From the NCBI GenBank assembly GCA_963851265.1, contig CAWKNZ010000002.1:1152001-1216000 (forward strand): DNA of 64,000 nt, given 5' to 3'. Position numbers and translations under genes: made by a program. The notes beneath the pieces were generated by a model, which was not told the DNA's origin, made no database searches, and worked only from the letters and a program-made list of their open reading frames with translations. This DNA comes from an uncultured Gemmatimonadales bacterium. GTDB lineage: Bacteria > Gemmatimonadota > Gemmatimonadetes > Gemmatimonadales > Gemmatimonadaceae. Below, one piece after another: positions 19,930 through 59,221 of the stretch. Each line of letters opens with the position of its first letter. Position 1 is the first letter of the stretch.

Positions 19930-21723
19930 ATGCTGACAGAGCTCCGCATCCGGAACTTCGCCATCATCGACTCGCTCGCGCTTCCGCTCGCGCGCGGGTT
20001 CAACGTGTTGTCCGGCGAAACCGGGGCGGGGAAGTCGATCATCGTCGGTGCGCTCGGCCTGCTACTCGGTGAGCGCGCGAGCACCGAGCTGATCCGCACC
20101 GGCGCCGACCGTGCGACGGTCGAGGGCACGTTCGACGTGGACGGACGTGACGACCTCGCCGCGCTGCTCGACGCACGCGGAATCGATGTGGACGCGCGAA
20201 CGGTCGTGCTCAAGCGCGAGGTTGCGACCGGAGGGCGCACCCGCGCGTGGGCCAACGGCACGCCGGTGACGGCCGGCGTGCTGGCGGAGATCGGGCGCCT
20301 GCTCGTCAACCTCCACGGCCAGCACGAGGCGCAGACCCTGCTCGACGCCGAATCGCAGCGCCGCACGCTCGACGCGTTCGCCGGCGCGCAGGGGCAGGCC
20401 GAGCGCGTGCGCGCGGCGGCGGCGGCGCTGGATGCGGTGCGCGCCGAGATTCGTGCGCTCGACGCGCGGCGCGCCGAGGCGGAGCGCCGCGCCGACTACC
20501 TGCGCCACGTCGCCAAGGAGATCGAGGACGCGCGCGTGGTCGTCGGCGAGGACGAGCGGCTCGAAGAGGAGGCGCGCCGCCTCGAGCACGCCGACGAGTT
20601 GCGGACGCTGGCGGCCGGCGCGTCGGCGCTCCTGGACGGCGCCGAGGACGCCGTACTCCAGCAGCTCGCTGCAGTGCATCGCGCGTTAGGCACGCTGGAG
20701 CGCATCGACGCGTCGCTCGCGCGTTTCGGGGAGCTGTACGACGCGGCGTTTTACGCGCTCGAAGAGTTGTCGCGCGAACTCGTCGACTACGAGCGAGGCG
20801 TGGAGCTCGACCCCGAGCGGCTGCAGGACGTTCAGCGCCGGCGCGACCTCCTGTTCCGGCTCACCAAGAAGTACGGCCCCACGCTGGCGAACGTCGTCGA
20901 CCAGGGTCGTCGCGCGCGCGAGGAGCTCGACCTGGTCGACTCCGCCGACGCCGACCTTCGCGCACTCGAGCTCCGCGAGGCGGCGGCGCGCGACGAGCTC
21001 GCGCGGGCGGCCGCCGAGCTCACGGCACGCCGCACGGCCGCGTCCGACCAGTTGAGCGAGGCCGTCGAGCGCGTCTTCCCGGACCTCGGGATGGCCGACG
21101 GGCGGTTCCGGGTCGCGCTCACACCCCGCGCCGAGCCGGCGGCGACCGGCGCCGAGGACGTCGAGTTCCGCGTCGCGCTGAACGTCGGCCACGACGCACG
21201 CCCGCTCGCGCGCGCGGCCAGCGGCGGCGAACTCTCCCGGGTGATGCTCGCGCTCAAGACCATCCTCGCGCGGCTCGACCGCGTGCCGACGCTCGTGTTC
21301 GATGAAGTCGACGCCGGGATTGGCGGCCGCGTCGGCCTGCTCGTCGGTGAGACGATGCGGCGCGTCGCGGATCACCACCAGGTGTTCGCGATCTCGCACC
21401 TGCCGCAGCTCGCGGCGCGCGCCCACCACCACATCCTCGTCAGCAAGGGCGCGCGCGACGGCGTGACGACGGCAGACGTGAGGGTGCTCGCGGGCGACGC
21501 GCGGGTGACGGAAGTCGCGCGGATGCTCGGCGGGGACGCCGAGAGCCCGGTGAGCCGCGCGCACGCGCGCGAACTGCTCGACGACGCGGTTCGCACCTCG
21601 GCGAGCAACGGCGCGGCCGCGCCCGCCCCGGCACCGCCCTCCAGTCCTGCGCCCGGCGTGCCCGGGACTAACGGCGCCCGCGCAGCCCGCCGTACACCCG
21701 CAGCGAGAGCACGTCCGAGCTGA
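19930..21723 (+). CDS. recN: DNA repair protein RecN
   Basis: Walker A SGETGAGKS, HGQHE, signature ASGGELSRVMLA, Walker B FDEVDAGIGG, ISHLPQ, EVARMLGG. Confidence 0.96.
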   Translation: MLTELRIRNFAIIDSLALPLARGFNVLSGETGAGKSIIVGALGLLLGERASTELIRTGADRATVEGTFDVDGRDDLAALLDARGIDVDARTVVLKREVATGGRTRAWANGTPVTAGVLAEIGRLLVNLHGQHEAQTLLDAESQRRTLDAFAGAQGQAERVRAAAAALDAVRAEIRALDARRAEAERRADYLRHVAKEIEDARVVVGEDERLEEEARRLEHADELRTLAAGASALLDGAEDAVLQQLAAVHRALGTLERIDASLARFGELYDAAFYALEELSRELVDYERGVELDPERLQDVQRRRDLLFRLTKKYGPTLANVVDQGRRAREELDLVDSADADLRALELREAAARDELARAAAELTARRTAASDQLSEAVERVFPDLGMADGRFRVALTPRAEPAATGAEDVEFRVALNVGHDARPLARAASGGELSRVMLALKTILARLDRVPTLVFDEVDAGIGGRVGLLVGETMRRVADHHQVFAISHLPQLAARAHHHILVSKGARDGVTTADVRVLAGDARVTEVARMLGGDAESPVSRAHARELLDDAVRTSASNGAAAPAPAPPSSPAPGVPGTNGARAARRTPAARARPS

Positions 21724-23347
21724 GCCGCGGCTGGGTGCCGCCGCCGCCCGCGGCGGTGACCGCGTGCAGGTAGCTCAGCTCGATCGGGAGTCGAGCACGA
21801 CCTCGCGACCACGCCGTCATCGTCGAGTACGACAGCCCAAGCCCGACGCGCGCCTCCCGCTGCGCCGTGCCGATGCCTAACGAAGAGGCGTCGAACGTCA
21901 CCGGCGGCCCGCCCGTCTCGTCCGCGGTGGCCGTGTACTGGCCGGTGTAGCGATCCGCCGCGCGCGCGCGAACGAGCGCCTGCCCCCACACGGCGAACGT
22001 CTCGCCCGTCGCGTATCGCGGATTCAGTTCGACCTGGACCTCGCGCCCGAGCTGTCGGCTGACCTCTCGCTCGCGGAAGAGCGGGACGTAGCCGGAGTCG
22101 AACGCGGCCGGCACGCGCAGCCGGCGCGTGTCGCCGAACGGCGCGGCGAGGCGGACCGCGCCGGAGATCGACACGCGCGGATTGAACACCACGTCGGTGA
22201 TCGAACGCAGGAGCAGCCCGTACGCACCGGTCGCGGGCGGCACGTCCAGCAGGATCCCCGGTACTTCGTACCGCCCGGTCCCTAACCGAACTCCGGCGAC
22301 GATCGTGCTCCGCACGCGCCGGCCCGCCGAGGTCGCACGCGAGCGCGCCATCCCACGCGCGTCCCGCGCGTCGTCGAACGTGTTCAGCCATTGATACATC
22401 GCGGTGAGCTCGACGTCACCGATCCCCCAATGGCGGAAGCCGCCGCCGAGCGAATCGGCTGCGGCCAGCCCGAACGACGTGTCCGCGACGGCGACGTGGT
22501 AGCCGGCGATCCCGATCCGCGCCTGCGCCGCGTACGGGACGGCGGTCGTGTCGAGCGTGACGCCGTCCGCGCGCGCACTGGCCGCGAGCCGCCCGAGTCG
22601 TTGGATGACCGCGGCCTGCGCGGCCGACCCTACGAGCGGGACCGCGTTTGCGCCCGGTGCCGTCCCGTTGCCGTAGACGCTGGCGAGCGCGGTCGCGAAG
22701 CGCGCGAGCGAGTCCGCGAGCGCGCTCGCGCCCGCGCTCTTGAGCGCCGCCGCGGCGGTCGTGAGGGCCTGCTGCGCCCGCAGGTTCGCCGCGTTCGCGG
22801 TCGACACCGTCGTCGCGTCGGCGTACCGAGAGTTGGCCGGGTTCAGCCCGAAATTCCCGTCCTTGCCCCCGGGGTTGACCGTGGGGGCGATGGACGTGCG
22901 CGTGCGCGTGATCGGCACCAGCACGCCGAACGCGAGCCGGCGCGAGAGCCCGACCTCGAGCGACAGTGGCACACTCAGCGTCTGGGCGTATCCGCTCACC
23001 TGCACCCGCCCGAGTGACAGGGCGAGCGCGCTGTTGCCGGTGATGGCGCGCAGCGTGTCGCGCACGGCGCGCAGTCGTGGGAGCTGCGTCACGCCGAACG
23101 AGTCGGTCGAGAACGCGCTTCCCACGCCCGCGCGCGCGCCACCGGCGAACGTCGATCCCCACGCCGTCACGTTCGGCGTCGCGCGAGCGCGCACCTGGCC
23201 GGGGGCGGGCAGCGTAGCGTCTTCGCCGCCGCCGAGGACGGCCTGGGCGGCGAGGTCACGCGCGCCGGCCAGCGACGCCGTGAGGGCGGCCGCTGCCAGG
23301 AGACCGGGCGCGCGGTGATTACGGAACGGCAAACCTTTGCTCCACAA
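21668..23347 (-). CDS. Exported/outer-membrane-like hypothetical protein (about 550 aa); start approximate (TTG 23347 or 23332)
   Basis: Signal-peptide-like GLLAAAALTASLAGARDLAAQ, then beta-strand-like segments (LSLEVGLSRRLAFGVLVP, GIGDVELTAMYQW, VGLGLSYS, LSLRVY). The longer ORF to 24757 is a shadow of the + strand gene. A promoter lies just upstream. Confidence 0.65.
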   Translation of the reverse strand: MWSKGLPFRNHRAPGLLAAAALTASLAGARDLAAQAVLGGGEDATLPAPGQVRARATPNVTAWGSTFAGGARAGVGSAFSTDSFGVTQLPRLRAVRDTLRAITGNSALALSLGRVQVSGYAQTLSVPLSLEVGLSRRLAFGVLVPITRTRTSIAPTVNPGGKDGNFGLNPANSRYADATTVSTANAANLRAQQALTTAAAALKSAGASALADSLARFATALASVYGNGTAPGANAVPLVGSAAQAAVIQRLGRLAASARADGVTLDTTAVPYAAQARIGIAGYHVAVADTSFGLAAADSLGGGFRHWGIGDVELTAMYQWLNTFDDARDARGMARSRATSAGRRVRSTIVAGVRLGTGRYEVPGILLDVPPATGAYGLLLRSITDVVFNPRVSISGAVRLAAPFGDTRRLRVPAAFDSGYVPLFREREVSRQLGREVQVELNPRYATGETFAVWGQALVRARAADRYTGQYTATADETGGPPVTFDASSLGIGTAQREARVGLGLSYSTMTAWSRGRARLPIELSYLHAVTAAGGGGTQPRLSSDVLSLRVYGGLRGRR

Positions 23348-23387
23348 CGCGTTAGACGATGCGCCGTGAGCCGGGCGCGCGGGGGCT

Positions 23388-23416
23388 AGATTAGCCGCGC
23401 CGCGGGGGAGCGTCAA
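23388..23416 (-). promoter_or_regulatory. Putative sigma70 promoter for the exported protein gene
   Basis: Minus strand TTGACG (23416-23411), 17-bp spacer, TAATCT (23393-23388). Confidence 0.6.
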
Positions 23417-23452
23417 CGTGGCGCCCCGCACGCGGTCCCCTTTCGTCCAACC

Positions 23453-25258
23453 GTGCCAACACTCCCGCCCACGCAGGTTCCCTGGCAAGTCACCGGCAAT
23501 CACTGGCTGTCGCTGCCGTGCATCCACCCGGCGGACGGCGCGGTTCACGCGGTCGGGGTACTTCACCGCGGGGCGCGCGCGGCCGTCGAGTTCGCCGGCG
23601 ACGCCGAGTTCCTCGCCGGGACCGGGCCCGCGTTGCTGCGCCCGGTGCTGCGCGTGGACGGCGTGGTGCGCGAGGTCGGCGGTGAGGGCGGAGCGATCGC
23701 GTGGGAGCGGGCCATGCACTGGCTGCCGACGTTCACGTCGACGCTCGCCGATTCCCTCGTCGTGCGCGGAACGATCTTCGCGCCGCACGGGCGCGACGCC
23801 GACCTGTCCGGCGCGGTGTACACGATCGCCGTCGAGAACCGGGGCGCCGCCGCCGTCGACATCGAACTCGCGCTCGAGGGCACGCTCGGGCACCGGCAGC
23901 TGCGCGTCCGCTCTCCACGCCCGTTCGACGACGCGCCGCGCGTGCACCGCGGCGCCGACGACGTGCTGGTGCTTGAAGGCGCGGCGCTCCCGGGACTCGT
24001 CGCAATCGCACTCGGGGCGGACGGCGAGGCGCGCGTCGAGATCGACGACGCCGGAGCGGGTGGCGCGCCGCGGTACGCGGTCCGACGCGCGTTCCGGGTC
24101 GAGCGGGGCACGACGCAGCAGGCCGCCTTCTATCTCGCCGCCGGCCCGGAGCGCGACGGCGCCCAGGCGACGGTCGCGGCGATGCGTCGCCGCGGATGGC
24201 GTGAGCTGCTCGCCCGCACGCGCGACGCGCTGCGCGACCTCGAGCAGACCACCGGCAACGCCGCCATCGACCGGCTGCTCAATCGAAACCTGCTGTTCGC
24301 GTACTTCTACGGCTGCGGGCGCGCACTCGACGACGCGCATTTCTACCTCGCGCGCACGCGCTCTCCCGCCCACGGACTCGGAGTCACGGTCCGCGACTGG
24401 GAGGCACTCACGTGGACGCTGCCGGCCGTACAGTTGGCCGACCCGGGCCTTGCGCGTGAACTCCTGCTGCGTGCGTGCGAGCTGCTCGGCTACGCGCCCG
24501 GCGACGGCGTGCGCTACCTCGACGGCACCTTGTTCGAGCCCGGATTCTCGCTCGAGGGTGCGGCGGCGTATGCCCTCGCCGCGGATCGCTACGTGCGCGA
24601 TACCAACGACGACCAGGTGATCGAGGAGGGCGTGCTCGCCGACACTCTCTACGCGGCCCACGACGACATCGCGGCACGGCGCGACGAGCGGCAGCCGCTC
24701 TACTCCACCGCGGTCGGCGTGTCGGGCGACCCGGTCGCGCATCCGTACACGCTGCACGGGAACGCGGTTGTCGCGCAGGCGCTCGCCGTCTTCCGGCGCA
24801 CGCTCGACGAGGAGACCGCGAAGTCGGTCCAGGACCCGGAGGCCGTGCGCGCCGCGCTCGCGCGTCAGTTCGGCGTCGAACGCGAGGGGAAGACGGTGTT
24901 CGCCGCCGCGATCGACCTCAAGGGCGCGAGCGCCGAGCGCGACGACCCGGTCGGCTCGGCGCTGTGGCTCCCGCTGTACGACGCGGTGGAACGCAGCGAC
25001 TCGACGTACCGCCGCACCGCGCGCGCGTTAGGCCCCGAGCACGCGGGCCAGCTCGCCGCACAGATCGCGCGCCTCCTCGGGCCCGACGCGCCACAGATGC
25101 TCCAGTGGCTGCGCCGCGCGCCTCTCGACCAAGGCGTCGCGGCGGAGTTCGTCGACGAGGAGGGGCGCGCGACGGGAAACGGCGGCGACGCCGCGCTCTC
25201 CGGGCTGCTCGCCGCGACCGTGTGGCACGCCGTGCACGTCCTCGGGGTCACGCCGTAA
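23453..25258 (+). CDS. Six-hairpin glycosidase-like protein (GH125/DUF1237-like), possibly degenerate
   Basis: NLLFAYFYGCGRALD, RTRSP, WTLPAVQLADPGLARELL, YLDGTLFEPGFSLE, DPVAHPYTLHGN, APLDQGVAAEFVD recall metal-independent alpha-mannosidase family proteins. Assigned from recalled motifs only. Confidence 0.6.
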   Translation: MPTLPPTQVPWQVTGNHWLSLPCIHPADGAVHAVGVLHRGARAAVEFAGDAEFLAGTGPALLRPVLRVDGVVREVGGEGGAIAWERAMHWLPTFTSTLADSLVVRGTIFAPHGRDADLSGAVYTIAVENRGAAAVDIELALEGTLGHRQLRVRSPRPFDDAPRVHRGADDVLVLEGAALPGLVAIALGADGEARVEIDDAGAGGAPRYAVRRAFRVERGTTQQAAFYLAAGPERDGAQATVAAMRRRGWRELLARTRDALRDLEQTTGNAAIDRLLNRNLLFAYFYGCGRALDDAHFYLARTRSPAHGLGVTVRDWEALTWTLPAVQLADPGLARELLLRACELLGYAPGDGVRYLDGTLFEPGFSLEGAAAYALAADRYVRDTNDDQVIEEGVLADTLYAAHDDIAARRDERQPLYSTAVGVSGDPVAHPYTLHGNAVVAQALAVFRRTLDEETAKSVQDPEAVRAALARQFGVEREGKTVFAAAIDLKGASAERDDPVGSALWLPLYDAVERSDSTYRRTARALGPEHAGQLAAQIARLLGPDAPQMLQWLRRAPLDQGVAAEFVDEEGRATGNGGDAALSGLLAATVWHAVHVLGVTP

Positions 25259-25263
25259 CCGGC

Positions 25264-25292: not shown

Positions 25293-25303
25293 CGATCGAC
25301 CGC

Positions 25304-25376: not shown

Positions 25377-25463
25377 CTCGTACGTGGCGCGGACGTCCTC
25401 CATGGACGTCCGCGCTCGTCGTTTCTGCGCGCGGTACGCGCCGCACCAGCGCTGCCGCGAACG

Positions 25464-25546
25464 GCCCGGATGGCGAAATCGGTAGACGCATGGGTCTTAA
25501 AAACCCTGGCCCTCTGGGCGTGCGGGTTCGAGTCCCGCTCCGGGCA
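25464..25546 (+). tRNA. tRNA-Leu (anticodon TAA), long variable arm; CCA not encoded
   Basis: GCCCGGA/TCCGGGC acceptor stem, D-loop TGGCGAAATCGGTAGACGCA, anticodon GGGT-CTTAAAA-ACCC, variable arm GCCC-TCT-GGGC, T-loop GGTTCGAGTCC, discriminator A. Confidence 0.94.
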
Positions 25547-25633: not shown

Positions 25634-26530
25634 TCAGAACGGCAGGTCGTCGCCGTCGATCGGAGAGCCTAACGGCGCCGCGTCGAACCGCGGCTCGGGC
25701 GATGCCGCGGCTGCCGCGCGCGCACGCGACGGTGCGCGACCGTTCGCCCGCGCCGGCGGAGTTCCGGCGGCTGCCGGCGAGGCTGGCACTTCGGCCGGTT
25801 CCCCGGGGCGCGGCGGCCAAACGACGCCGTCACAGCTTCGATCGCGACACTTGAAGTCAGGCGCCTTCGGATTGCGCTTGGTGAGCCGGTTGTCCCACAT
25901 CCGTCCGCTGCACTTCGGGCACGTCGGGTCGTCGGTAGCCCCCGCGCCGGACTGGGCGGCCGACGCGAACTCATCATCGTCGGCGGGGATCGGCTCGACA
26001 CTCGGCTGACGCGCGGTGACCGGCCGTCGCGTGTCGGCCGCAGCGGTCCGTCGAGCGTCGGCAGCGGCCGGCTCGTCGACGGGGCGCGGCACGTCCGGGC
26101 CGTCGACGACCACCCAGTTCGGCTCGCGCCCGTTGAGCTCGTGACCGATCCCGAAGCGCACCGCGGCGCGCGCGAGCGCGTCGTTCGCCGCGCTCTTGTA
26201 GTCGGGACCGGTGCCGACGTCTTCCCGGATCACGCCGAGGATCTGAAGGCGAGCCTTGAACGCGCATTCCGGTGTGTCACCGGCACGCGTTGGCAGCGAG
26301 GGGAGTAGCTCGAGCGTGAGATCCCACTCGCCGGGAACGACGCGATCGAGGCGCTCGCGGACGGCATTCGCGCCGGGATGCGCGACGTAGCGCACGTACC
26401 ACGCGCCGTCGCGCGCGACGGGTCCGCCGTCCTGCCGCCACGCGGTCGCGTCGGCGTCGAGGGGCGCGGCGAGCGCGGACCAGAGGTTCGGCTTGTCGAG
26501 GGAGGTGGGGGCGTCGTGGCGTGCAATCAT
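25634..26530 (-). CDS. Rad52/Rad22-family (DdrA-like) single-strand annealing protein with C-terminal C4 zinc ribbon/PDF-like motif and acidic DDLPF tail
   Basis: LAAPL...W...AH..ANAVRERLDRVVPGEW...KARLQILGVIREDVG...YKSAANDALARAAVRFGIG aligns by eye with the Deinococcus DdrA core. CPKC-x20-CRDRSC near the C-terminus. SD-like GAGAG before ATG. Confidence 0.85.
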   Translation of the reverse strand: MIARHDAPTSLDKPNLWSALAAPLDADATAWRQDGGPVARDGAWYVRYVAHPGANAVRERLDRVVPGEWDLTLELLPSLPTRAGDTPECAFKARLQILGVIREDVGTGPDYKSAANDALARAAVRFGIGHELNGREPNWVVVDGPDVPRPVDEPAAADARRTAAADTRRPVTARQPSVEPIPADDDEFASAAQSGAGATDDPTCPKCSGRMWDNRLTKRNPKAPDFKCRDRSCDGVVWPPRPGEPAEVPASPAAAGTPPARANGRAPSRARAAAAASPEPRFDAAPLGSPIDGDDLPF

Positions 26531-28632: not shown

Positions 28633-29634
28633 ATGCAACCCGCCGCCGACGTCGTCTCGCTCGCCGCCGAGCTGCTCGCCGCGCAGTCGTCGACCGGCGC
28701 CGAGGGCCCGGCGGTCGATTTCGTATCAGGGTGGCTCATTCGCCGCGGATGGGACGTCATGCTGCAGGAGGTCTCGCCGGGCCGCAGCAACGTCTGGGCG
28801 ACCCGCCGCGGCGGCGGCGTGACCTTCTCGACGCATCTCGACACCGTTCCGCCCTACTATCCCCCGCGGCTCGAGGGCAGCCGCCTGTACGGGCGCGGGT
28901 CGGCCGACGCCAAGGGCATCGCGGCCGCGATGATGGTCGCCGCGGATCGACTCGCCCGCGCGGGCGAGGAGCGCATCGACCTCCTCTTCGTCGTCGGCGA
29001 GGAGAAGGGCTCGGACGGCGCGCGGGCGGCGAATCACCTGCCGGCCACGAGCGCGTGGCTCGTCAACGGCGAGCCCACCGAGAGCAAGCTCGCGAGCGGG
29101 GCCAAGGGCTCGCTCCGCGTGACGGTTCGCACGCGCGGCCGCGAGGCCCACTCCGCGTACGCCCACCTGGGCCGGTCCGCGATCGACCCGCTCGTCGACC
29201 TGCTGTCGGGCCTGCGCACCCGGTCGTGGCCCGCAGACGACGCCCTCGGCGCGACGACCTACAACGTGGGCGTCATCCGCGGCGGGTCCGAGGCCAACAT
29301 CGTGCCGGCCGCGGCGGAGGCGGAACTCATGTTCCGAGTCGTCGGCGACCCCGCTCCGGTGCGCTCCCAGCTGACGGAATGGGCCGACGGCACGGCCCAA
29401 CTCGAATGGGGTTCGTACATTCCGGCCCAACGATTCCACACGATCGACGGGTTCGAGATCGCGCCGGTGTCGTACACCTCGGACATCCCGCTGCTCGGGC
29501 GTTGGGGAACGCCGTTGCTGTTCGGGCCCGGATCGATCACGGTCGCGCACACGCCGGACGAGTACGTGGCGGTCGGCGAACTGCGCGAGAGCGTCGACGC
29601 GTACGCGAGCATCGCGCGCGCGCTGCTCGCCTAA
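28633..29634 (+). CDS. M20 family metallo-hydrolase (ArgE/DapE-like), probable N-acyl-DAP deacylase by context
   Basis: STHLDTVP, GRGSADAKG, VGEEKGSDG, NGEPT, AHS, FGPGSITVAHTPDE; first gene of the DAP operon. Confidence 0.85.
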   Translation: MQPAADVVSLAAELLAAQSSTGAEGPAVDFVSGWLIRRGWDVMLQEVSPGRSNVWATRRGGGVTFSTHLDTVPPYYPPRLEGSRLYGRGSADAKGIAAAMMVAADRLARAGEERIDLLFVVGEEKGSDGARAANHLPATSAWLVNGEPTESKLASGAKGSLRVTVRTRGREAHSAYAHLGRSAIDPLVDLLSGLRTRSWPADDALGATTYNVGVIRGGSEANIVPAAAEAELMFRVVGDPAPVRSQLTEWADGTAQLEWGSYIPAQRFHTIDGFEIAPVSYTSDIPLLGRWGTPLLFGPGSITVAHTPDEYVAVGELRESVDAYASIARALLA

Positions 29635-29647
29635 CGCTCGCCGGTCC

Positions 29648-32264: not shown

Positions 32265-32977
32265 TCGGGGAAGGGCGGGTGCGCGCCGCCGTCATCGGAC
32301 GCGGGCGGATGGGCCGTTCGATCGAGGCGCTCGCCGACGAGCACGGCGTGGAAGTCGTGGCGAGCCTCGGACGGGGCGATCCGGTCGGGCGCGAGACGTT
32401 AGGCGGCGCCGCCGTGGCGATCGAATTCACCGAACCCGGTGCGGCACTCGCGAATCTGCGTGCCTGCGCCGCCGCGGGCTGTCCCGTCGTCGTCGGGACG
32501 ACCGGCTGGGGCGCGCCGGACGCGGCATTGCGCGCGGAACTCGCGGCCGCGGGCGCGCGCGCACTCGTTGCCGCTAACTTCTCGCTGGGAGTCAACGCGT
32601 TGCTCGCGGCGGTGGGCCCCATCGCCGCGGCGCTCACGCGCGCGGGGTTCGTGGACCACCTCGTCGAGACGCACCACGCCGCGAAAAAGGACGCGCCGTC
32701 GGGTACGGCACTCGCCATCGCCGACGCGGTCCAGCGCGACGCGGCGCGGCCGCCGATCAGCAGCGTGCGCGTCGGCTTCGTCCCGGGCACGCACACGCTC
32801 GTGTTCGACGCGCCGTACGAGCAGGTTCGTATCACGCACGAGGCGCGTGACCGGCGCGTCTTCGCGTCCGGCGCACTCGTCGCGGCGCGCTGGCTCGCGG
32901 CGGGCCGGCCGCCGGGACTCTACACCATGCAGGACGTGATCGCGCCCGCGGCCGACGCGTCGGAGGCACCCCGATGA
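32261..32977 (+). CDS. dapB: 4-hydroxy-tetrahydrodipicolinate reductase
   Basis: GRGRMG, VVGTTG, ANFSLGV, ETHHAAKKDAPSGTA, ITHEARDRRVFASGA. Confidence 0.93.
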   Translation: MIGEGRVRAAVIGRGRMGRSIEALADEHGVEVVASLGRGDPVGRETLGGAAVAIEFTEPGAALANLRACAAAGCPVVVGTTGWGAPDAALRAELAAAGARALVAANFSLGVNALLAAVGPIAAALTRAGFVDHLVETHHAAKKDAPSGTALAIADAVQRDAARPPISSVRVGFVPGTHTLVFDAPYEQVRITHEARDRRVFASGALVAARWLAAGRPPGLYTMQDVIAPAADASEAPR

Positions 32978-33969: not shown

Positions 33970-34825
33970 CGCGCACACCGAGCTCGAAGCACGCGTGCTC
34001 GCGTCAGCAAACACGCCGCCGGCGGAACCGCTGCCCGGCGACGCCGGCGAGACGGTCGAACAGCTGCTCGCCGCTCTCGAGGCGGGCGGCCTGCGTGCCG
34101 CCGAGCAGGACGCGGACGGAACGTGGCGCGCCGTGCCCTGGGTGAAGCGCGGCATCCTGCTCGCGTTCCGTCTCGGCCGCGTCGTCGACATGTCGCCGGC
34201 CACCGACGGCGGCCCGGGGTTCCGCTTTTACGATAAGAACACCGTTCCGCCGCGCGACATCGCGATCGACGCGGGCGTCCGCCTCGTTCCCGGCGGCTCC
34301 GCGGTGCGACGCGGCGCCTACCTCGCCGCGGGCGTCGTCTGCATGCCGCCGATGTACGTCAACGTCGGCGCATGGATCGGCGCCGGCACGATGGTCGACT
34401 CGCACGCCCTCGTCGGCTCCTGCGCGCAGATCGGCGCGCGCGTGCACCTGAGCGCCGCGGCGCAGATCGGCGGCGTGCTCGAGCCGGTGAACGCTGCGCC
34501 TGTGGTGATCGAGGACGACGTGCTCGTCGGCGGCAACTGCGGCGTTTACGAAGGCACGGTGGTCCGGCGCGGTGCCGTGCTCGCCGCGGGCGTCGTGCTC
34601 ACGCGCGGCACGCCCGTGTACGACCTCGTGCGCGAGACCGTCTACCGGGCGACCGCCGACGCGCCACTCGAGATCCCACAGGATGCCGTCGTCGTGCCCG
34701 GAGCGCGGCGCGTGCGCGGCGGCTGGGCCGAGGCCGAGGGGCTGATGCTGCAGACCCCCGTGGTCGTCAAGTACCGCGACGAGCGCACCCAGCTCGCGAC
34801 CGCGCTCGAACAGTGGCTGCGTTAG
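33962..34825 (+). CDS. dapD: 2,3,4,5-tetrahydropyridine-2,6-dicarboxylate N-succinyltransferase
   Basis: WVKRGILLAFR, RLVPGG, YVNVGA, MVDSHALVGSCAQIG, IGGVLEP hexapeptide repeats. Confidence 0.94.
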   Translation: MSDAHTELEARVLASANTPPAEPLPGDAGETVEQLLAALEAGGLRAAEQDADGTWRAVPWVKRGILLAFRLGRVVDMSPATDGGPGFRFYDKNTVPPRDIAIDAGVRLVPGGSAVRRGAYLAAGVVCMPPMYVNVGAWIGAGTMVDSHALVGSCAQIGARVHLSAAAQIGGVLEPVNAAPVVIEDDVLVGGNCGVYEGTVVRRGAVLAAGVVLTRGTPVYDLVRETVYRATADAPLEIPQDAVVVPGARRVRGGWAEAEGLMLQTPVVVKYRDERTQLATALEQWLR

Positions 34826-34842
34826 GCGCCGGGCGGACGACC

Positions 34843-38937: not shown

Positions 38938-40490
38938 ATGTCCATGCGCGCGAAACTCGAAACGCTCGCCGCGCGCCGCGCGGCCTCCGAACTCGGCGGC
39001 GGCGCGGCCCGCCTCAAGGCCCAGCACGACAAGGGCAAGCTCTCCGCCCGCGAACGGCTCGACGTGCTGCTCGACGAGGGCACGTTCGTCGAGGTCGATC
39101 GTTTCGTCACCGCGCGCGCCGCGTCCGACGGCAACGGCGCCGACGGCCCCGTGTACGGCGACGGCGTGGTCACCGGCTCCGGCCGCATCGACGGGCGCCT
39201 CGTCTACGTGTTCTCGCAGGACTTCACCGTGTACGGCGGCTCGCTGGCCGAGGCCCACGCGCAGAAGATCTGCAAAATCATGGACCTCGCCGTGCGTAAC
39301 GGGGCCCCGGTCGTCGGCCTCAACGACTCGGGCGGCGCGCGCATCCAGGACGGCGTCGTCGCGTTAGGCGGGTACGCCGACATCTTCCTGCGCAACACGC
39401 TGGCGTCGGGAGTCGTGCCGCAAATCTCCGCCATCCTCGGCCCGTGCGCCGGCGGCGCGGTGTACTCGCCCGCGATCACCGACTTCATCTACATGGTGCG
39501 CGGCTCGAGCTACATGTTCGTGACCGGGCCGAACGTGGTGAAGACGGTCACGCACGAGGACGTGACGATGGAACAGCTCGGGGGCGCCGACACGCACGCG
39601 GCCACGTCGGGCGTCGCCCACTTCGCCCACGACTCCGAGCTCGCGTCGCTCGCGGCGATCCGCGAGCTGTTCCGGTACATCCCGAGCAACAATCTCGACG
39701 ACCCGCCGCGCGGGCGCGGCGCCGACCCGCGGGACCGCCGAGACGAAGCGCTGCTCGACGTCGTGCCCGACAATCCCAACCGCCCGTACGACATCCACGA
39801 CGTGATCCGCCGCGTGATCGACGACGGCGAGTTCTACGAGGTGCAGGCCGAGTACGCGGCGAACATCGTTTGCGGCTTCGCACACCTCGGCGCGCACTCC
39901 GTCGGGGTTGTCGCCAACCAGCCGGCGGTGCTCGCCGGCGTCCTCGATATCAACGCCTCGCTCAAGGCGGCGCGCTTCATCCGGTTCTGCGACGCGTTCA
40001 ACATCCCGATCGTCACCTTCGAGGACGTCCCCGGCTTCCTGCCCGGCGTCGCGCAGGAGCACGGCGGCATCATCAAGCACGGCGCGAAGCTGCTGTACGC
40101 CTACTGCGAGGCGACCGTGCCGAAGCTGACCGTCATCACGCGCAAGGCGTACGGCGGCGCGTACGACGTGATGAGTTCGAAGCACATCCGCGGTGACTTC
40201 AACGTCGCGTGGCCGACCGCCGAGATCGCGGTCATGGGGCCGAAGGGCGCGGTCGAGATCATCTACAAGCGCGAGATCGCCGAAGCCGACGACGCGGCTG
40301 CCGCGACCGACGCGCGCGTCGCCGAATACACCGAGCGGTTCGCCAATCCGTATGTCGCGGCCGCGCGCGGGTACGTCGACGACATCATCGACCCGCGCGA
40401 CACGCGCCCGCGACTCATCGAGGCGCTCGACGCGTTGCAGGGCAAGCGGGATCGCAACCCGGCCAAGAAGCACGGGAACCTGCCGCTCTG

Positions 40491-40491: not shown

Positions 40492-42037
<1,546 letters not shown>

Positions 42038-45036: not shown

Positions 45037-45054
45037 CGTTAGGCACACACCACC

Positions 45055-46268: not shown

Positions 46269-47147
46269 ATGAGCACCGCCACCTTCACCGCGAAGGACGT
46301 CCAGGAGCTGCGCCAGCGCACCGGCGCGGGCATGATGGACTGCAAGAAGGCCCTGGAGGAAAACCAGGGAAACATGGAGGCCTCGGTCGACTACCTGCGC
46401 AAGAAAGGCATCGCGAAGGCCGAGAAGCGCGCCGGTAAGAGCACGAGCGAGGGCGTGGTCCGCGCCGAGATCGGGCAGAACGGGTCGACGGGTGTGCTCG
46501 TCGAGATCAACTGCGAGACCGACTTCGTCGCGCGGAACGAGGGGTTCCAGGCGATCGCGAAGACCGTCGCCGACCAGGCGCTCGCGACGTCGACCGCCAG
46601 TGACGCCAACGCACTCCTGAGTTCCACGATCGCCGGTGGCCAGTCGGTCGAGGAGTACGTCAAGGAGAGCTCGGCGAAGATGGGCGAGGCCGTGAACGTG
46701 CGTCGCGTGGCGCGCTTCGACGCGCCTAACGGCGTCGTCGGGTCGTACGTGCACTTCAACGGCAAGATTGGCGTGCTCGTCGAGGTAGAGGCAGCCAACG
46801 GGTCGAAGGACGAGGCCCTCACGACGCTTGCCCGCACGCTCGCCGAGCACGTGGCGGCTGCAGCGCCGGTCGGCGTCGATCGCGATACCGTCCCGGCCGA
46901 CGTCGTCGAGCGCGAGCGCGCGATCTTCATCGACCAGGTGCGCGCGAGCGGCAAGCCCGAAGCGATGATCGACAAGATCGTGACTGGCAAGGTCGAGGCC
47001 TACTACAAGGACGTCGCGCTCGTCCACCAGGCCTGGATCCGCGAGCCGAAGACGACGATCCAGCAGGTCGTCGATCAGGCCGCCAAGCAGGTCGGCGCGC
47101 CGGTCACCGTCAAGCGCTTCGCACGTTTTCAGCTCGGGCAGGAGTGA
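46269..47147 (+). CDS. tsf: Elongation factor Ts
   Basis: [48 protein letters not shown]. Confidence 0.97.
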
Positions 47148-53173: not shown

Positions 53174-55084
53174 CTACTGACAGAGCAGTTTGTGCGGCTC
53201 GCGACGCGTCTTGCCCGCGACGACCGGGAGGCGGTCGTCGCTGTACGACGCGCAGGCGCTCGCCTCGACCGTTAGGCGATACGTACCGTCTGGGAGAACG
53301 AGCGGTTCGGAGAGGGGGAGCACACCCTCGCGTGTCGGTCCGCCGCGGAGCGGGACGAGCGTGTAATGCGGGGTCGACGTGGCGCTGAAATCGAGCAACA
53401 ACCGGCCACACGGGATCGGCTCCAACGTGATGGCCCGTCGGGTTCCCGGGACCACGTCGACCGCAACCGCCGTGTCGGCCGAGGAGCAGCCCGGGAGTCC
53501 CCCAACGCTCGCGCGTACCGTATAGCGGCCGGCCGGTATCGGCCCGCTCCGCCATGGCCCGCGCCCGACCGACTCGCCGTCGAGGTACACGTCGGCCTCG
53601 GACGGTACCGAGACTGAAACCGTGCCGGCGCCGACGGCCTTGGCCGGTCCGCCGCGCGCCGCGGCTGACCGCACTCTGCCGCCCATTACCGTGGCGACAT
53701 CGGCGCTGCCCGGGAGGGCCGCGCTCGCCATCGATGCGAGTTCGGCGCGACGGGCCGCTGTGGCGGCCGCAAGACGTAATGCCGAGTCGCTCGTTGAGCC
53801 CGGCGACCGGTTCGACAGGTCCGTGCCGGGCGCGACAGCCGGACGCGCCGAATCGGCGCCCAGCGACGTCACCGCGTGCGCGTCGAGGGTCGTCCCGAGA
53901 CCAGTCGCGGGGCGCGGCGCCGCCGTCGGCGCGACCGGACTTCGTGTCGGCGTCCGCTCGGGCGAGCCGCGGACCGCGAGCAGACGCCCGCCCACGATCG
54001 CGATGCTTCCGGCCGCGAGCGTCGCCGCAGCCCACCGCCAGCGCTTCGGCGCGCCGCGCGCGGCGGACGCAGCGGCGACGCGCGGAATCTCGGTGGTGTT
54101 CAGCCGGTTACCGGCCGCGCCGCGCAGGGCGTCGAGGGCGTCGGCCAGCGCGTCGCCTGTCTGGTACCGCGCCGCGGGATCCTTGGCGAGCGCACGCGCG
54201 ACCACGGCATCGAAGCGCCCATCGAGGTCGCCGTTCACGCTCGACGGCGGCGGTGCGGTCTCTTCGACGTGCTGCCGCATGACGACGTACCAATCGTCAC
54301 CGGCGAACGGCACGACACCCGTTGCCGCGCGGTACAGTGTGACGGCGAGCGAGTACAAGTCGCTCCGACCATCGAGCGCGAGTCCTCGGGCCTGCTCGGG
54401 CGAGAAGTACGCGGGCGTTCCGAGGAGGACTTGACGACTCGGCCCCGACGGCGCGGCGCTGAGTGCGCGTGCGATCCCGAAGTCGGTGACGACTGCGCGC
54501 CCGTCGCGGGCGAACAGCACGTTCTCCGGCTTGACGTCGCGGTGTACGATGCCCTGACGGTGGGCGTATGCGAGACCGCGCGCGACCTCCGCACCGATCC
54601 GCGCCACGTCGGACTCGCCGAGTGCCCCGCCCGCGTTGAGACGGTCGGCGAGCGAGTGCGGCAGGTAGTCCATCACCAAGTACGGCGCGCCGACCGGGAT
54701 ACCGTCGAAGGGCTCGGTCAGGCGCCCGACCGTCAGGACGGTGATGACGTGGGGGTGTCGGAGCTTCGCCGCCGTCGTTGCCTCGCGCCGGAACCGTTCG
54801 ACGACTTCTGCGTCGTGGGCGAGCTCCGGGCGGAGCACCTTGATCGCGACGTCGAGCTCGAGGTCTGGGTCGACGGCGTGGTAGACGCGGGCGAATCCGC
54901 CGACGCCGACCGACCGCACGACGCGGTAGCGGCCGAACAATCGGCCGCCAACCTCGGCGTCGGTCGGGGGGGGCGCAGCGACGAATTCGGGCGCGTCTGA
55001 CAGGGGCGGGACGGCGAAGGATGGACGCGGGCTGGCGAGCGCCGGCGCGCACGACGCCAACGGCCGCTGTCGCAGACTTGTCAC
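53174..55084 (-). CDS. Hanks-type Ser/Thr protein kinase, membrane-anchored, with PEGA-like extracellular domain
   Basis: [51 protein letters not shown] segment [22 protein letters not shown]-like [16 protein letters not shown]. Confidence 0.92.
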
Positions 55085-55165
55085 GGCGGGGTTGCGGGAG
55101 TAAGCTTATGTGCTTACGAGCGTTGCGCGCTTGAGCGCCGCCGGACGTGCCGAGAATATACATCC

Positions 55166-55426
55166 ATGGCTTTCGAGAAAGCACCGACCATCACCAAGTA
55201 CCAGACGCACGAGTCCGACACGGGTTCGACGCGCGTCCAGGTCGCGGTCCTGACGGACCGCATCAACTACCTGACCGATCACTTCCGAACCCACCAGAAG
55301 GATCACCACGGACGGCTCGGGCTTCTGAAGATGGTCGGTAAGCGCCGGCGGCTGCTCGACTACCTGAAGCGTACGGACGTCGCGGGATACCGCACGCTCG
55401 TCACGGAGCTCGGGCTTCGGCACTGA
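55166..55426 (+). CDS. rpsO: 30S ribosomal protein S15
   Basis: [38 protein letters not shown]. Confidence 0.97.
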
Positions 55427-55443
55427 GTGGTTCGCAGGATCAA

Positions 55444-55486
55444 TCGCGCGGGCGCAGCGACTGCGGCCGCGCGTTTTGTGTTTTGC
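55444..55486 (+). terminator. Putative intrinsic terminator after rpsO
   Basis: GC stem CGCGCGGGCGCAG/CTGCGGCCGCGCG followed by TTTTGTGTTTT. Confidence 0.55.
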
Positions 55487-55670
55487 ACGTGCGGCTCGCA
55501 CGTGGCGTCTCCCCTGCCGTCAGCTTGTTGCGCAGCGGGTCTGTTGTGGCCGCCGGATGTCGTCGTCTCCGGTCGCCTGCCGTTCTCCGGGCTCCACGAT
55601 TGGCTAGCGGAGCGCTAGCGGGCCCCGGACGGCTTCCTCCATCGCGCCTGGCGCGCGAGAGTACCTCTTT

Positions 55671-57938
55671 ATGATGCAACGCGTAGAACGCACCTTCGCC
55701 GGCCGCCGCCTCGTGATCGAGACGGGCCGCATGGCGAAGCAGGCGGCCGGCTCGGCCCTCGTCCAGTACGGCGACACGATGGTGCTCGCCACGGTGACGG
55801 TGAGCGACAACCAGAGCACGCTTCCGTTCTTCCCCCTCACGGTCGAATACCGTGAGAAGACCTACGCCGCGGGCAAGATCCCCGGTGGCTACATCAAGCG
55901 CGAGACGCGCCCCGCCGACGCCGAGATCCTGTCGGCCCGGATCATCGACCGGTCGATCCGCCCGCTCTTTCCCGAGGGCTTCAAGAACGAAGTCCAGGTC
56001 TTCGTCTACGTCATCTCCGCCGACCAGGAGAACGACCCCGACGTTCTCGCCCTGGTCGCGACGAGCTACGCGCTGAACGCCTCACGTGTGCCGTTCCTCG
56101 GCCCGATCGCCGGAGTTCGCGTCGGGCGCGTGCAGGGCAGCTGGATCCTCAACCCGACGTTCCAGCAGCTGCAGTACAGCGACCTCGAACTCGTCGTCGC
56201 GGGCTCGCAGGACTCGATCGTGATGGTCGAGGGCGGCGCGCTGGAAGTGAGCGAGGACGACGTCGTGCAGGCCCTCACCGTCGGGCACAACGGAATCCGC
56301 GAGCTCATCGACGCCCAGCGCGAACTGCTCGGCAAGGCCGGGCAGGTCGAGAAGATGGCGTGGAGCAAGGCCGAGATCCCCGAAGCCGTCACCGCCCGCG
56401 TGAAGGAGCTCGCCGAAGGCCGGATCGCCGAGGCGATCAATCAGGCCGACAAGGCGAGTCGCGTGCAGGCCGTCGACGCTGTCAAGAAGGCCGTGAAGGA
56501 GCAGCTGCTCCCCGAACTGCCCGACAACTCGAAGGACCTCGGCGCGATCCTCGGCGATATCGAGTACAACGCGCTCCGCGGTCAGGTGCTCGACACCGGC
56601 CTTCGCGTCGATGGGCGCAAGCCCAACGAGGTCCGCGCGATCTCGATCGATACGGGCCTCCTCCCGCGCGCGCACGGGTCGGCGCTGTTCACCCGCGGCC
56701 AGACGCAAGCGCTCGTCGCGGTCACGTTAGGCACGGCCAACGACGTCCAGCGCCTCGACTCCGTGAACGACGCGGCCGAGACGACCAAGTCGTTCATGCT
56801 GCATTACAACTTCCCGCCGTTCTCGACCGGCGAGGTCCGCCCGGTGCGCGGCACGAGCCGCCGCGAGATCGGGCACGGCAACCTCGCCGAGCGCGCCCTG
56901 CAGGGCGTGCTCCCCGAGTTCGAGCAATTCCCGTATACGGTACGCATCGTCTCCGACGTCCTCGAGAGCAACGGCTCGTCGTCGATGGCGTCGGTGTGCG
57001 GCGGTTCGCTCGCCCTGTTCGACGCCGGCGTGCCGATGCGCGCGGCGGTCGCCGGTGTGGCGATGGGCCTCATCAAGGAAGGCGAGCGGTACGCGGTCCT
57101 CACCGACATCCTCGGCACCGAGGACCACCTCGGCGACATGGACTTCAAGGTCGCGGGGACGGCGGCGGGCATCACCTCGATCCAGATGGACATCAAGATC
57201 GAGGGGCTCGACCTCCAGATCCTGACGGAAGCGCTGACGCAGGCCAAGGAAGGTCGCCTGCACATCCTCGGCGAGATGGACAAGGCGCTCGCGGCACCGC
57301 GCGCCGAGATGTCGGCGTACGCGCCCCGCATCGTCACGATCCAGATCAGCCCCGAGAAGATCGGCGATCTCATCGGTCCCAAGGGCAAGACGATCCGCGG
57401 CATTCAGGAAGAGACCAAGACCGAAGTCACGGTCGACGACACGGGCCTCGTCACGATTGCGGCCGTCGGCGCCGAATCGATGGACCGTGCGAAGCAGATG
57501 GTCGTCGCGCTCACCGCGGAGCCGATCGTCGGCGACGTGTACGAGGGGACGGTCAAGAGCACGACGGCGTTCGGCGCGTTCATCGAGATCATGCCGGGCA
57601 CCGAAGCGCTGCTGCACATCTCCGAGATGAAGCACGGCCGCGTCGAAAAGACCGAGGACGTGGTCAAGAAGGGCGACACGGTGAAGGTGAAGCTGATCGA
57701 GCGCGACGAGCGCGGGCGCCTGCGCCTTTCGATGAAGGCACTCGAGCCGAAGCCGGAAGGGATGACCGAGTCCGACGGCAACGGGAACGGCGCGGGCGGC
57801 GACGCCGACGGCCGCGGCGAGCGCCCGGCACGGTCTGGGAGCGACCGCGGCGGCCGCGACCGCGGTCCGCGCGGAGAAGGCTCGCGCGGGGAAAGCTCGC
57901 GCGGCGAGGCCCGCAGTGGGGGCCGCGATCGCGAGTGA
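55671..57938 (+). CDS. pnp: Polyribonucleotide nucleotidyltransferase (PNPase)
   Basis: FFPLTVEYREK, AGKIPGG, DRSIRPLFP, RREIGHG, ESNGSSSMAS, EDHLGDMDFKVAG, KH and S1 domains. Confidence 0.97.
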   Translation: MMQRVERTFAGRRLVIETGRMAKQAAGSALVQYGDTMVLATVTVSDNQSTLPFFPLTVEYREKTYAAGKIPGGYIKRETRPADAEILSARIIDRSIRPLFPEGFKNEVQVFVYVISADQENDPDVLALVATSYALNASRVPFLGPIAGVRVGRVQGSWILNPTFQQLQYSDLELVVAGSQDSIVMVEGGALEVSEDDVVQALTVGHNGIRELIDAQRELLGKAGQVEKMAWSKAEIPEAVTARVKELAEGRIAEAINQADKASRVQAVDAVKKAVKEQLLPELPDNSKDLGAILGDIEYNALRGQVLDTGLRVDGRKPNEVRAISIDTGLLPRAHGSALFTRGQTQALVAVTLGTANDVQRLDSVNDAAETTKSFMLHYNFPPFSTGEVRPVRGTSRREIGHGNLAERALQGVLPEFEQFPYTVRIVSDVLESNGSSSMASVCGGSLALFDAGVPMRAAVAGVAMGLIKEGERYAVLTDILGTEDHLGDMDFKVAGTAAGITSIQMDIKIEGLDLQILTEALTQAKEGRLHILGEMDKALAAPRAEMSAYAPRIVTIQISPEKIGDLIGPKGKTIRGIQEETKTEVTVDDTGLVTIAAVGAESMDRAKQMVVALTAEPIVGDVYEGTVKSTTAFGAFIEIMPGTEALLHISEMKHGRVEKTEDVVKKGDTVKVKLIERDERGRLRLSMKALEPKPEGMTESDGNGNGAGGDADGRGERPARSGSDRGGRDRGPRGEGSRGESSRGEARSGGRDRE

Positions 57939-59221
57939 CGCTTCTCACGGCACGGGGCGCGTCGGCTGACGCCGACGTCCCCCCGCGCCGCACGACGCTG
58001 CCTAACGGACTGACCGTACTTTCGGCCCGCGTGCCGAGGGTGCGGTCGGTTGCGTTCGGCGCGTTCGTGCGCGCGGGATCGCTGCACGAGAGCCGCGCGA
58101 CGATGGGCGTGGCACACCTGCTCGAGCACATGGTCTTCAAGGGCACGCCGACGCGCACCGCGCGGCAGCTCTCGCTCGACGTCGAAACGCTCGGCGGCTC
58201 GCTCGACGCGTACACCACCCGCGAGTACACGTCGTATCAGGCGCGCGTGCTCGCCGACGACGTGCGCGTAGCCGCCGATGTGATCGGGGACCTCGTCTTC
58301 CGCCCGCTGCTGCGCGACGAGGACCTCGCGCTCGAGCGGAACGTGATCCTCGAAGAGATCGGGACGATGGAAGACACCCCCGACGACCTCGTGTTCGAGC
58401 TGCACAACGCCCTGCTCTGGGGCGACCACCCGCACGGCTACTCGATTCTCGGCACGCGCGAATCCGTCGGGGCGCTCACGGGAGACGACCTGCGCGCGCT
58501 GCACGCGCGGGCGTACCACCCCGGCCAGATAATCGTCGCCGCGGCCGGTGCGGTCGAGCACGACGAGCTGGTGGAGGTGCTGCGTGCGACCGGGTGGGGC
58601 GACGTACCGGCGGGCGACCCCGCGCCGCTCGTCACCATCGCACCGCGATTCGAGCCGCCCGCGTACAAGCACGTGCCGAACCGCGAGCTGACGCAGACCC
58701 ACGTCGTCTTCGGCGCGCCGGGCGTGTCACACGCCGACCCCCGTCGCGATGCGCTGGCGCTGGTCAGCACCGTCCTCGGCGGCGGGATGAGCTCGCGCCT
58801 GTTCCAGACCGTTCGCGAGGAGCTCGGGCTCGCGTACACGGTCCAGACGACCCAGTCGGTGCACGCCGACGCCGGTACCCACGGCGTGTACTTCGCGAGC
58901 GCGGCCAAGACGGCGCGGAAGGCGGCCGACGCCGTGCGTCGCGAGTACGCGCGGTTACACAGCGAGGGGCTGCCGGACGCGGAACTGGACGCAGCCAAAC
59001 GACAGATCCGCGGACAGGTGCTCCTGAGCGCGGACAGCGTGACGAACGCCATGTACCGGGCGGCCGAGACCGCGCTGTTCGAGGAGCCCTACCGGTCGCT
59101 CGACGAAGTCGTCGCGCGCATCGACGCCGTGACGCCCGACGACGTGCGGGCACTCTGCGCCGAGCTGTACGACCCCGAGCGCCAGACCGTCCTCAGTCTC
59201 GGCCCGAAGCCCGTCGCCTGA
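57935..59221 (+). CDS. M16 family (pitrilysin-like) zinc peptidase
   Basis: TLPNGLTV, inverted zinc motif [42 protein letters not shown] overlaps the pnp stop. Confidence 0.92.

Follow-up and report, generated by a model that had tools for sequence, protein, structure and literature searches.

The octamer CGTTAGGC, which recurs across a 64,000-nucleotide stretch of the genome of an uncultured Gemmatimonadales bacterium (hereafter the window), belongs to a genome-wide word, (C>T)GTTAGGC. A strong, strand-blind, and saturating force acts on the exact duplex sequence of this word, which persists in all available frames despite codon bias. By analogy with known systems, we give roughly even chances to the interpretation that the word is uptake-sequence-like and has been spread by biased recombination. 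The original prediction, made from the window alone, took the octamer for a lineage-specific signal selected as DNA and not as protein and likened it to Chi, KOPS (FtsK-orienting polar sequences), HIP1, a DNA uptake sequence, or a site for a methyltransferase or nucleoid protein; this interpretation was partly supported. The source genome is labeled G000 (4.6-Mb assembly, ~73% GC, 12 contigs), the window is positions 1,152,001 to 1,216,000 of its contig C2, and other G numbers (G001, G004, G303, and so on) are labels for the genomes compared with it. The atlas cluster closest to the G000 EF-Ts consists mostly of Gemmatimonadota.

A total of 1,396 copies of CGTTAGGC were found in G000 (708 on the plus strand and 688 on the minus strand). 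It was the top 8-mer under a Markov model of order 2, with an observed/expected ratio of 27.8 (24.0 at order 3); at orders 5 and 6, the ratio was near 1 because these orders absorb the word's own sub-words. The core GTTAGGC occurred 1,762 times, accounting for 92% of all TTAGG, and was preceded by C in 79% of copies and by T in 14%. Genes were predicted with our own Markov-model caller (3,734 genes, with codon statistics based on the 3,411 confident ones). Coding sequences held 1,260 words, compared with 50 to 79 in ten synonymous-codon shuffles (~20-fold), and the over-representation suspected from the window thus held under both the Markov and the synonymous null. One-base variants were mostly at or below a codon-aware null, with a mild rise for CGTTGGGC (3.4), CGTTAGTC (2.9), and CGTTAGAC (2.5).

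All 15 octamers reported in the window were present at the positions and on the strands given; 100 dinucleotide shuffles yielded a mean of 1.01 copies, and no shuffle reached 15. The reading frames assigned to them were correct at 15/15 sites, based on our gene calls, Pfam/NCBIfam names, one translation, and the sequence: x-Leu(TTA)-Gly in nine genes, Pro-Asn in two, Leu(CTA)-Thr in one, two stop codons, and one intergenic copy. The word sites, and the word-free stretch that precedes them, are as follows.

20684..20691, plus strand: recN, Ala-Leu(TTA)-Gly; the same codon carries the word in G001 and G004
21875..21882, minus strand: unnamed minus-strand open reading frame (ORF), Ser-Leu(TTA)-Gly; missed by the gene caller, frame assigned by hand, no Pfam match
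25026..25033, plus strand: unnamed 601-aa ORF, Ala-Leu(TTA)-Gly; CTC codon in G001, G004, and G303
25667..25674, minus strand: 298-aa minus-strand ORF with a weak coding score, Pro-Leu(TTA)-Gly
29629..29636, minus strand: GCCTAAC gives the TAA stop of an M20 peptidase gene
32397..32404, plus strand: dapB, Thr-Leu(TTA)-Gly
34820..34827, plus strand: GTTAGGC gives the TAG stop of dapD
39362..39369, plus strand: carboxyl transferase gene, Ala-Leu(TTA)-Gly; common to G001 and G004
41029..41036, plus strand: biotin carboxylase gene, Ala-Leu(TTA)-Gly; common to G001 and G004
45037..45044, plus strand: intergenic, 10 bp upstream of the rpsB start
46724..46731, minus strand: tsf, coding strand Ala-Pro(CCT)-Asn; relatives have other residues
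50176..50183, plus strand: dxr near its 5' end, Ala-Leu(TTA)-Gly
53270..53277, plus strand: antisense in a minus-strand protein kinase gene, Arg-Leu(CTA)-Thr
56725..56732, plus strand: pnp, Thr-Leu(TTA)-Gly; common to G001, G004, G303, and G164; CTC codon in G094 and G008
58000..58007, minus strand: M16 peptidase gene, coding strand Leu-Pro(CCT)-Asn
1..20683, no strand: word-free stretch, part of a 22.3-kb gap (G000:C2:1150385-1172684) that is the second longest of the genome

The word is genome-wide and is not limited to the interval 20684-58007 that was proposed as its bounds; its density was 0.23 per kb in the window and 0.38 per kb in the genome. Three additional seven-base matches (5152, 6799, and 60497) contain CGTTAGG as described, but their last base is wrong and none has a true GTTAGGC core. 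The gene for tRNA-Leu(TAA) does lie in the window, at 25464-25546; nothing was found that ties it to the word, and its proximity is incidental as far as this could be tested. Between recN and the tRNA genes are two long ORFs with no Pfam match (21668-23170 on the minus strand and 23453-25258 on the plus strand), and at 34372-36100 aroA is seemingly split over two frames, by either an assembly error or a frameshift.

Genome-wide, our gene calls placed the word in four frames, x-Leu(TTA)-Gly (997), Pro-Asn (200), Leu(CTA)-Thr (68), and Val-Arg (23), with ~195 copies at stop codons and 279 called intergenic. It was found on 15-22% of Ala/Pro/Ser/Thr-Leu-Gly sites and on 15-25% of Pro-Asn-Gly/Ala/Val/Asp/Glu sites, and this similar occupancy indicates that the word is about as frequent in one orientation relative to transcription as in the other. 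Together, the excess over synonymous shuffles, the four frames, the two stop-codon contexts, and the occurrence in intergenic DNA and on both strands bear out the earlier view that selection or drive acts on the DNA and not on the protein. The word also reshapes the use of codons and stops. Of 1,241 TTA codons, 986 belong to it, in line with the large share that had been suspected, so that four in five G000 TTA codons exist because of it, and it supplies 114/393 TAA and 80/673 TAG stops. Words were scarce in genes with atypical GC content at third codon positions (GC3), at 0.44 in the lowest 5% and 1.58 in the top 5%, and were enriched in convergent spacers (1.08 per kb vs 0.32 per kb in genes). 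The Leu-Gly dipeptide overall was at 1.03 of expectation in G000. At the same aligned columns, [APST]-Leu-Gly occurred 188 times in G000 and 133 times in five word-poor genomes, with 138 vs 151 for the reverse control (Fisher p 0.009). When four word-rich relatives had Leu-Gly, G000 also had it at 52/122 of their sites with the word and 147/264 of those without (p 0.02). The proteome thus carries a modest imprint of the word. Elsewhere in the composition of G000, CTAG was strongly avoided (0.18 of expectation) and AGCGCT was low (0.55).

Words were rarely found close together. Under a null in which eligible codons are filled at the rate of their class (300 simulations), G000 had 12 word pairs less than 200 bp apart against 82.2 expected, a sevenfold depletion in which each bin fell below all 300 simulations, and 18 against 40.3 at 200-300 bp; the ratio was back to 1 by 500 bp. 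Close pairs were depleted in the same orientation (22 vs 100.5 expected) and in the opposite orientation (7 vs 51.5), with pairs counted twice and p-values accordingly overstated. A neutral rare-codon control, CTT.GGC, was instead clustered (3 vs 0.5). GTTGGGC had been chosen as a spacing control presumed to be neutral, but it too had few close pairs (2 vs 10.1) and was halved near perfect words (odds ratio of 0.43 vs 0.60-0.69 for TTG elsewhere); it is either a weak site or a decay product of the word. For other genomes, a plain random null was applied to pairs less than 300 bp apart in sequence samples, and depletion was replicated in two of five sets, G239 (113 vs 176.8 in 299 kb) and G012 (36 vs 69.7 in 153 kb). 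Small samples gave 3 vs 7.0 (G001) and 11 vs 8.7 (G004). Close-pair depletion is thus strong in three genomes and was not seen in others. On the simplest reading, a single word is enough for a stretch of a few hundred bases, and another copy contributes little.

The longest gaps between words in G000, of 45 and 22 kb, lie in ordinary genes. The 45-kb gap (C1:182877-227963; 14.2 words expected in genes alone) extends over three parS-like palindromes, mnmG, parAB, and mnmE. Exclusion of the word from a parS/ParB domain was considered and rejected: the gap is absent in 10 other word-rich genomes, in which, on one or both sides, the word nearest to parB is 0.1-4 kb away. On the same contig, dnaA-dnaN-rpmH (dnaA-like gene at 11433-12461) is ~180 kb from mnmG-parAB (parAB at 195825-197530), and the parS of genus g1, TGTGGCACGTGCCACA, is GC-richer than that of relatives.

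Distribution of the word among relatives was patchy. Ten of 40 relatives, including all four same-genus genomes, had at least 100 CGTTAGGC per Mb, and 12 of 300 phylum genomes (counted by hand from the table) had at least 100 YGTTAGGC per Mb. These 12 comprised 9 of 70 genomes of the source's own family and 3 of 125 of family f2 (all of genus g76), with 0 of 3 in family f3 and 0 of 102 outside the order; in the 40-relative set, two of eight f3 genomes were word-rich. G011, which is unpublished, is a word-poor row in both sets, and no claim is based on it. Densities ran from ~1 to 1,250 per Mb, and sister taxa occupied both extremes. In a PNPase tree of 31 own-family genomes, word-rich and word-poor lineages were interleaved: G239 and G296 (~1,100 per Mb) belonged to one clade (support 100/99) with G292 (15) and with G007 and G137 (6), densities that mix C-only and Y (C or T) counts. 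The description of the word as lineage-specific holds in that it is rare in sister taxa, but it is abundant in scattered lineages of three families, not in one lineage. A plasmid of the named strain Gemmatirosa kalamazoonensis KBS708 (NZ_CP007129.1, 1.1 Mb) carries 855 copies compared with 25 for the reversed control, and the abundance is therefore no artifact of one assembly. A paired-word scan of IMG/VR returned 31 loci, 30 with 2-6 words and one array-like with 18, and only one of the 31 had weak protein matches to the Gemmatimonadota DNA used for comparison; a tsf scan of the genome contig collection gave mostly distant taxa, and a recN search of plasmids gave nothing relevant.

At codons with Leu-Gly or Pro-Asn in both genomes of a pair, the words of G000 were common to G004 at 7/9 sites, G001 at 4/9, G303 at 2/11, G164 at 1/1, and G008 and G094 at 0/2 each. 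Conservation of positions in orthologs, which had been suggested as a check, is thus evident in G004 and has given way to turnover by G303. Word sites lie in gap-free codon triplets of ortholog alignments, and the word is shown to arise by substitution at permissive codons and to turn over between genera. Tolerance of variants differs by lineage, like dialects: CGTTATGC was in excess over its control in G012 (708 vs 207) and G008 (236 vs 110) and depleted in G239 (13 vs 115), G012 also favors CGTTAGGT (17.7-fold), and G239 favors CGTTAGTC and CGTTAGGA. No comparable replacement word was found in 80-140 kb samples of five word-poor genomes (none in G094, G006, G047, or G067, and one 8-9-mer in G292). 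The G292 sequence, CTGAACCC / AGGGTTCA, had 17-19 copies (10-15-fold) in G292:C168:1-80000 and may be either a local repeat or a dispersed word. Samples of G012 contained a second enriched family, ATAGGGGATA-like, with 16-22 copies (10-18-fold), probably a small repeat element. Contig C4 of G303 is a phage-satellite-like element with a 6-kb terminal repeat, an integrase, a primase, an excisionase, a repressor, and a 1,024-aa ORF without a PHROGs match.

We propose that a sequence-specific protein may recognize (C>T)GTTAGGC in double-stranded form and would favor DNA that bears the word at a step that precedes homologous recombination. By analogy with Neisseria and Haemophilus, this step would most likely be DNA uptake via a type IV pilus, ComEA, and ComEC. 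One word would suffice to favor a fragment; a second copy would be useless and would drift toward the neutral rate, and the effective fragment or protein footprint would measure a few hundred bases. Word-bearing alleles would win in recombination and spread by molecular drive. Sister lineages without the excess may have lost or relaxed the reader or may recombine less. G000 encodes uptake genes: comEA directly before pilB-pilT-pilC, pilA, three minor-pilin sets, pilM-Q, comEC, dprA, and recA; comF and comM were not found in a crude motif scan. As candidates for the reader, ComEC, the ComEA family, PilM, and ComP were considered and rejected, and so were PilX-like pilins. A first tree split off most word-rich genomes (support 82), and the word-poor sister G292 then joined G239/G296 with a support of 100; the split reflects kinship and paralogy.

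Several observations weigh against uptake as the favored step. The two PilX-like pilins do not track the word, the ComP family (PF16732) was over the cut-off in none of five word-rich genomes, and uptake genes were independent of word content (ComEC in 5/5 genomes, HHH_3 in 52/53, and pilM in 39/39). Among the matches listed in a literature search, there was no report of natural transformation in this phylum. Only six inverted pairs closer than 35 bp were present among 1,762 words, and terminator pairs are thus very few. The word needs the rarest Leu codon, unlike uptake sequences with their common-codon frames, and with 7-8 bases it is below the 9-10-base uptake cores. The chromosome sample of G303 showed no shortage of close pairs (29 vs 26.6), and depletion was not significant in G296 (26 vs 34.3; p 0.09) or in samples of two named Gemmatirosa plasmids (18 vs 22.7). 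The contrast with recently gained DNA is also inconsistent. The value was 0.44 in low-GC3 genes, but the 15-kb integrase-primase element G303:C4 has 14 unique words (0.93 per kb vs 0.63 in the G303 chromosome sample), and insertion sequences inside a cassette array of G000 carry words.

In the leading alternative, an intracellular protein with a nucleoid-organizing, repair-loading, or self-marking role would bind the word, a single site every few hundred bases would suffice, and ordinary selection would maintain the word; we assign this reading a minor but appreciable probability. Orientation-blind saturation would fit the footprint of a protein, the word is at least as dense in a mobile element and insertion sequences as in the host, secondary replicons such as NZ_CP007129.1 are rich in it, uptake genes do not follow it, and a structural role has been proposed for the quasi-periodic HIP1 (10.64898/2026.06.24.733823). 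An intracellular site is harder to reconcile with a density that spans ~1 to 1,250 per Mb and sets sister taxa far apart (~1,100 in G239/G296 vs 15 in G292), with the 45- and 22-kb gaps that G000 tolerates in ordinary genes, with the turnover of sites (2/11 shared with G303), and with the lack of any pattern relative to the terminus or parS, the parAB gap being missing in 10 other word-rich genomes. Sites for matS, SlmA, and Noc are confined to or excluded from a chromosome domain. A domain-restricted nucleoid site of this type was rejected: the word is in all contigs and around dif, and the parAB gap is not conserved. A Chi-like signal for a helicase-nuclease, unskewed as it would serve two-ended breaks or incoming DNA, is very unlikely. 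Chi and KOPS are short asymmetric words over-represented inside genes, the word is likewise a non-palindromic 7-8-mer in genes, and G000 has an AddAB-like pair. At C2:1,368,968, where gene direction switches, is a site that we take as dif from this switch and from its resemblance to the consensus. Assuming one replichore per side of dif, words on C2 counted per eligible codon (observed/expected) were 286/290.0 leading and 197/201.6 lagging overall, 143/142.1 (1.01) leading and 52/62.6 (0.83) lagging within 400 kb of dif, and 143/147.9 (0.97) leading and 145/139.0 (1.04) lagging beyond it. The raw skew on C2 near dif, which disappears once words are counted in this way, is explained by gene direction in a strand-biased terminus region, and replichore polarity was rejected; a 600-kb region of this kind is known in this phylum (PMC11237797). 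The strand-bias check proposed at the outset thus gave the outcome expected of HIP1 or uptake sequences, and the analogies with KOPS and with a replication-polar Chi fail. Opposite-orientation pairs are depleted like same-orientation ones, which is unexpected for a polar signal, and an AddA-like protein, rejected as the reader, was found with a single query in 2/20 word-rich vs 11/32 other genomes.

It is hardly credible that the word is a methyltransferase site driving its own spread, in the way suggested for HIP1, via methyl-directed repair or methyl-dependent uptake. The single-molecule real-time (SMRT) methylome of KBS708 contains only RGATCY, ATGCAC, and CCAGN7TCA (PMC3974934); the word is missing from it, although one replicon of this strain, which is not the source of G000, is word-rich. 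This published methylome is what bears on the suggestion to consult methylation calls, and its answer is negative for that strain. No C5-methyltransferase (PF00145) was found in any of five word-rich genomes (G000, G001, G303, G239, and G012), and there was no N6/N4 methyltransferase family match in G000, G001, or G239. The only DNA methyltransferase found in G000 (C7:579717-585511) is a type IIG/DrmMI-like adenine enzyme with intact motifs, followed by a helicase-like gene. Type IIG-like enzymes read asymmetric words, and 67 of 68 Gemmatimonadales genomes searched have this one, apparently as one copy with a conserved C-terminal region. It is possibly a Dam/CcrM-like housekeeping methylase of the order, and no alignment column separates 12 word-rich from 14 word-poor genomes. 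Methylation as an explanation is already largely refuted, except for conditional methylation. Of the analogies first offered, those with a replication-polar Chi, KOPS, and a methyltransferase site thus fail, and those with an uptake sequence and a nucleoid-protein site both remain after these tests.

The original prediction did not mention that the word is the core of integron attC sites of the order: it has the same letters as the attC R box and the same preceding C>T, and it is the commonest core in the order's attC arrays. Decidedly improbable, in our judgment, is that an integron integrase or other attC-directed recombinase creates or selects the word at chromosomal secondary sites, although several features connect the two. 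The word fits the attC consensus (R' GTTRRRY, R'' RYYYAAC), and the R'' of class 1 attCaadB is GCCTAAC (PMC12901181). G000 has a chromosomal integron with an array on C10:188000-215025 and C6:1-6100, attC sites bounded by GCCTAAC and GTTAGGC, and an intI interrupted by a serine-recombinase element. R boxes of this array most often spell the word, which makes up 15/22 (GTTAGGC) and 19/25 (GCCTAAC) core-type matches, insertion-sequence words included. One attC site folds with two word copies paired (z -2.8), and the best structure of another lacks box pairing. In 15 word-poor genomes, 20/32 core-type matches within 1.5 kb of intI, assigned by hand, are the word, and many of the copies listed for word-poor genomes form same-strand clusters ~550 bp apart (G027:C95 and G025:C3) or attC-like pairs. 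The array also contains IS481-like and IS110-like elements, the latter apparently within attC sites, and its cassettes are in large part, judging from motifs familiar to us, presumably toxin-antitoxin-like.

Against a role for the integrase, the array holds only 34/1,762 words (~2%), and the other 98% are lone, outside any cassette array, and without L boxes or a hairpin. The R''-R' spacing in attC is 57-141 bp. The attC architecture (R''/R' pair, L boxes, and hairpin) was seen in true array sites and in 0/15 window sites, and dispersed copies lack a partner box or attC flanks and sit in gap-free codon triplets. Among the 16 CGTTRRRY words, strong enrichment is restricted to CGTTAGGC (27.8), and the runner-up reaches 2.3. 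IntI was found in 15/22 word-rich and 24/36 other genomes and was not found in G001 (5 contigs, 97% complete), and no stand-alone integrase core-binding domain was found in G001, G130, or G008. Integrase presence was thus rejected as an explanation, and the integrase does not maintain the word. The shared spelling may point to a shared history or to a reader tuned to the attC core, inseparable as this is from GTTAGGC being the most GC-rich GTTARRY. An extension of the uptake reading, which we hold to be unlikely, is "cassette fishing": a third sequence-specific uptake system, of independent origin and without precedent outside Proteobacteria, with a receptor tuned to the integron cassette core. 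The cells would preferentially import small, cassette-sized DNA bearing GTTAGGC, and the same bias acting on kin DNA would give, as a by-product, the genome-wide word and its saturation at 200-300 bp. If true, this would link integron cassette acquisition to competence and bear on how cassettes reach chromosomal integrons.

Two proteobacterial families are known to take up DNA with a sequence bias, and in cyanobacteria HIP1 has been a puzzle for three decades. In a common soil phylum, including the cultured type strain KBS708, a word of similar strength implies an undescribed DNA-reading protein, and the word's gain and loss among sister taxa provide natural contrasts for finding this protein. 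In the main texts covered by the literature searches, no paper on the word was found. With its spelling identical to the attC core, the word also hints at a possible connection of uptake with the traffic of integron cassettes.

Among known systems, the word shares most with the DNA uptake sequences (DUS) of Neisseriaceae, with their receptor ComP, and the uptake signal sequences (USS) of Pasteurellaceae. Like these, it is present in hundreds to thousands of exact non-palindromic copies on both strands and in several frames, is scarce in atypical genes, uses permissive codons, leaves a peptide enrichment, has lineage dialects, and apparently gains nothing from a close second copy. Uptake sequences are scarce in recently gained genes (PMC2397512), enrich tripeptides and favor frames with common codons (PMC2817400), and have dialects by lineage (PMC3630211). 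In an account of Haemophilus influenzae (PMC7811141), two uptake sequences within 100 bp add no uptake and molecular drive is expected to yield even spacing, yet 23% of sites are no more than 100 bp from another, many in terminator pairs. The word differs from DUS and USS in its letters, its length, its phylum, the lack of a detected ComP, its few terminator pairs, its rarest codon, its abundance in a mobile element, and its patchiness among sister taxa. It resembles Chi (read by RecBCD/AddAB) and KOPS (read by FtsK) in being short, asymmetric, over-represented, and in genes, but shows no skew relative to replichores or dif. With the attC R box it shares the letters, the preceding C>T, and the place of commonest core in the order's arrays, but it is mostly lone, lacks L boxes and hairpin, and does not follow the integrase in abundance. 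HIP1 (GCGATCGC) of cyanobacteria is palindromic, and the methylases DmtA and DmtC read it. HIP1 and the word are both highly iterated octamers that occur in coding as well as non-coding DNA, have spread through substitution, are distributed patchily within a phylum, and are regularly spaced, whereas the word is asymmetric (CGTTAGGC and GCCTAACG differ) and is not in the methylome of a word-rich strain; the comparison with HIP1 made at the outset is therefore fair as an analogy but not as family membership. With no ComP, palindromy, methylation, or polarity found for it, the word belongs to none of these families, and it works like DUS/USS or HIP1.

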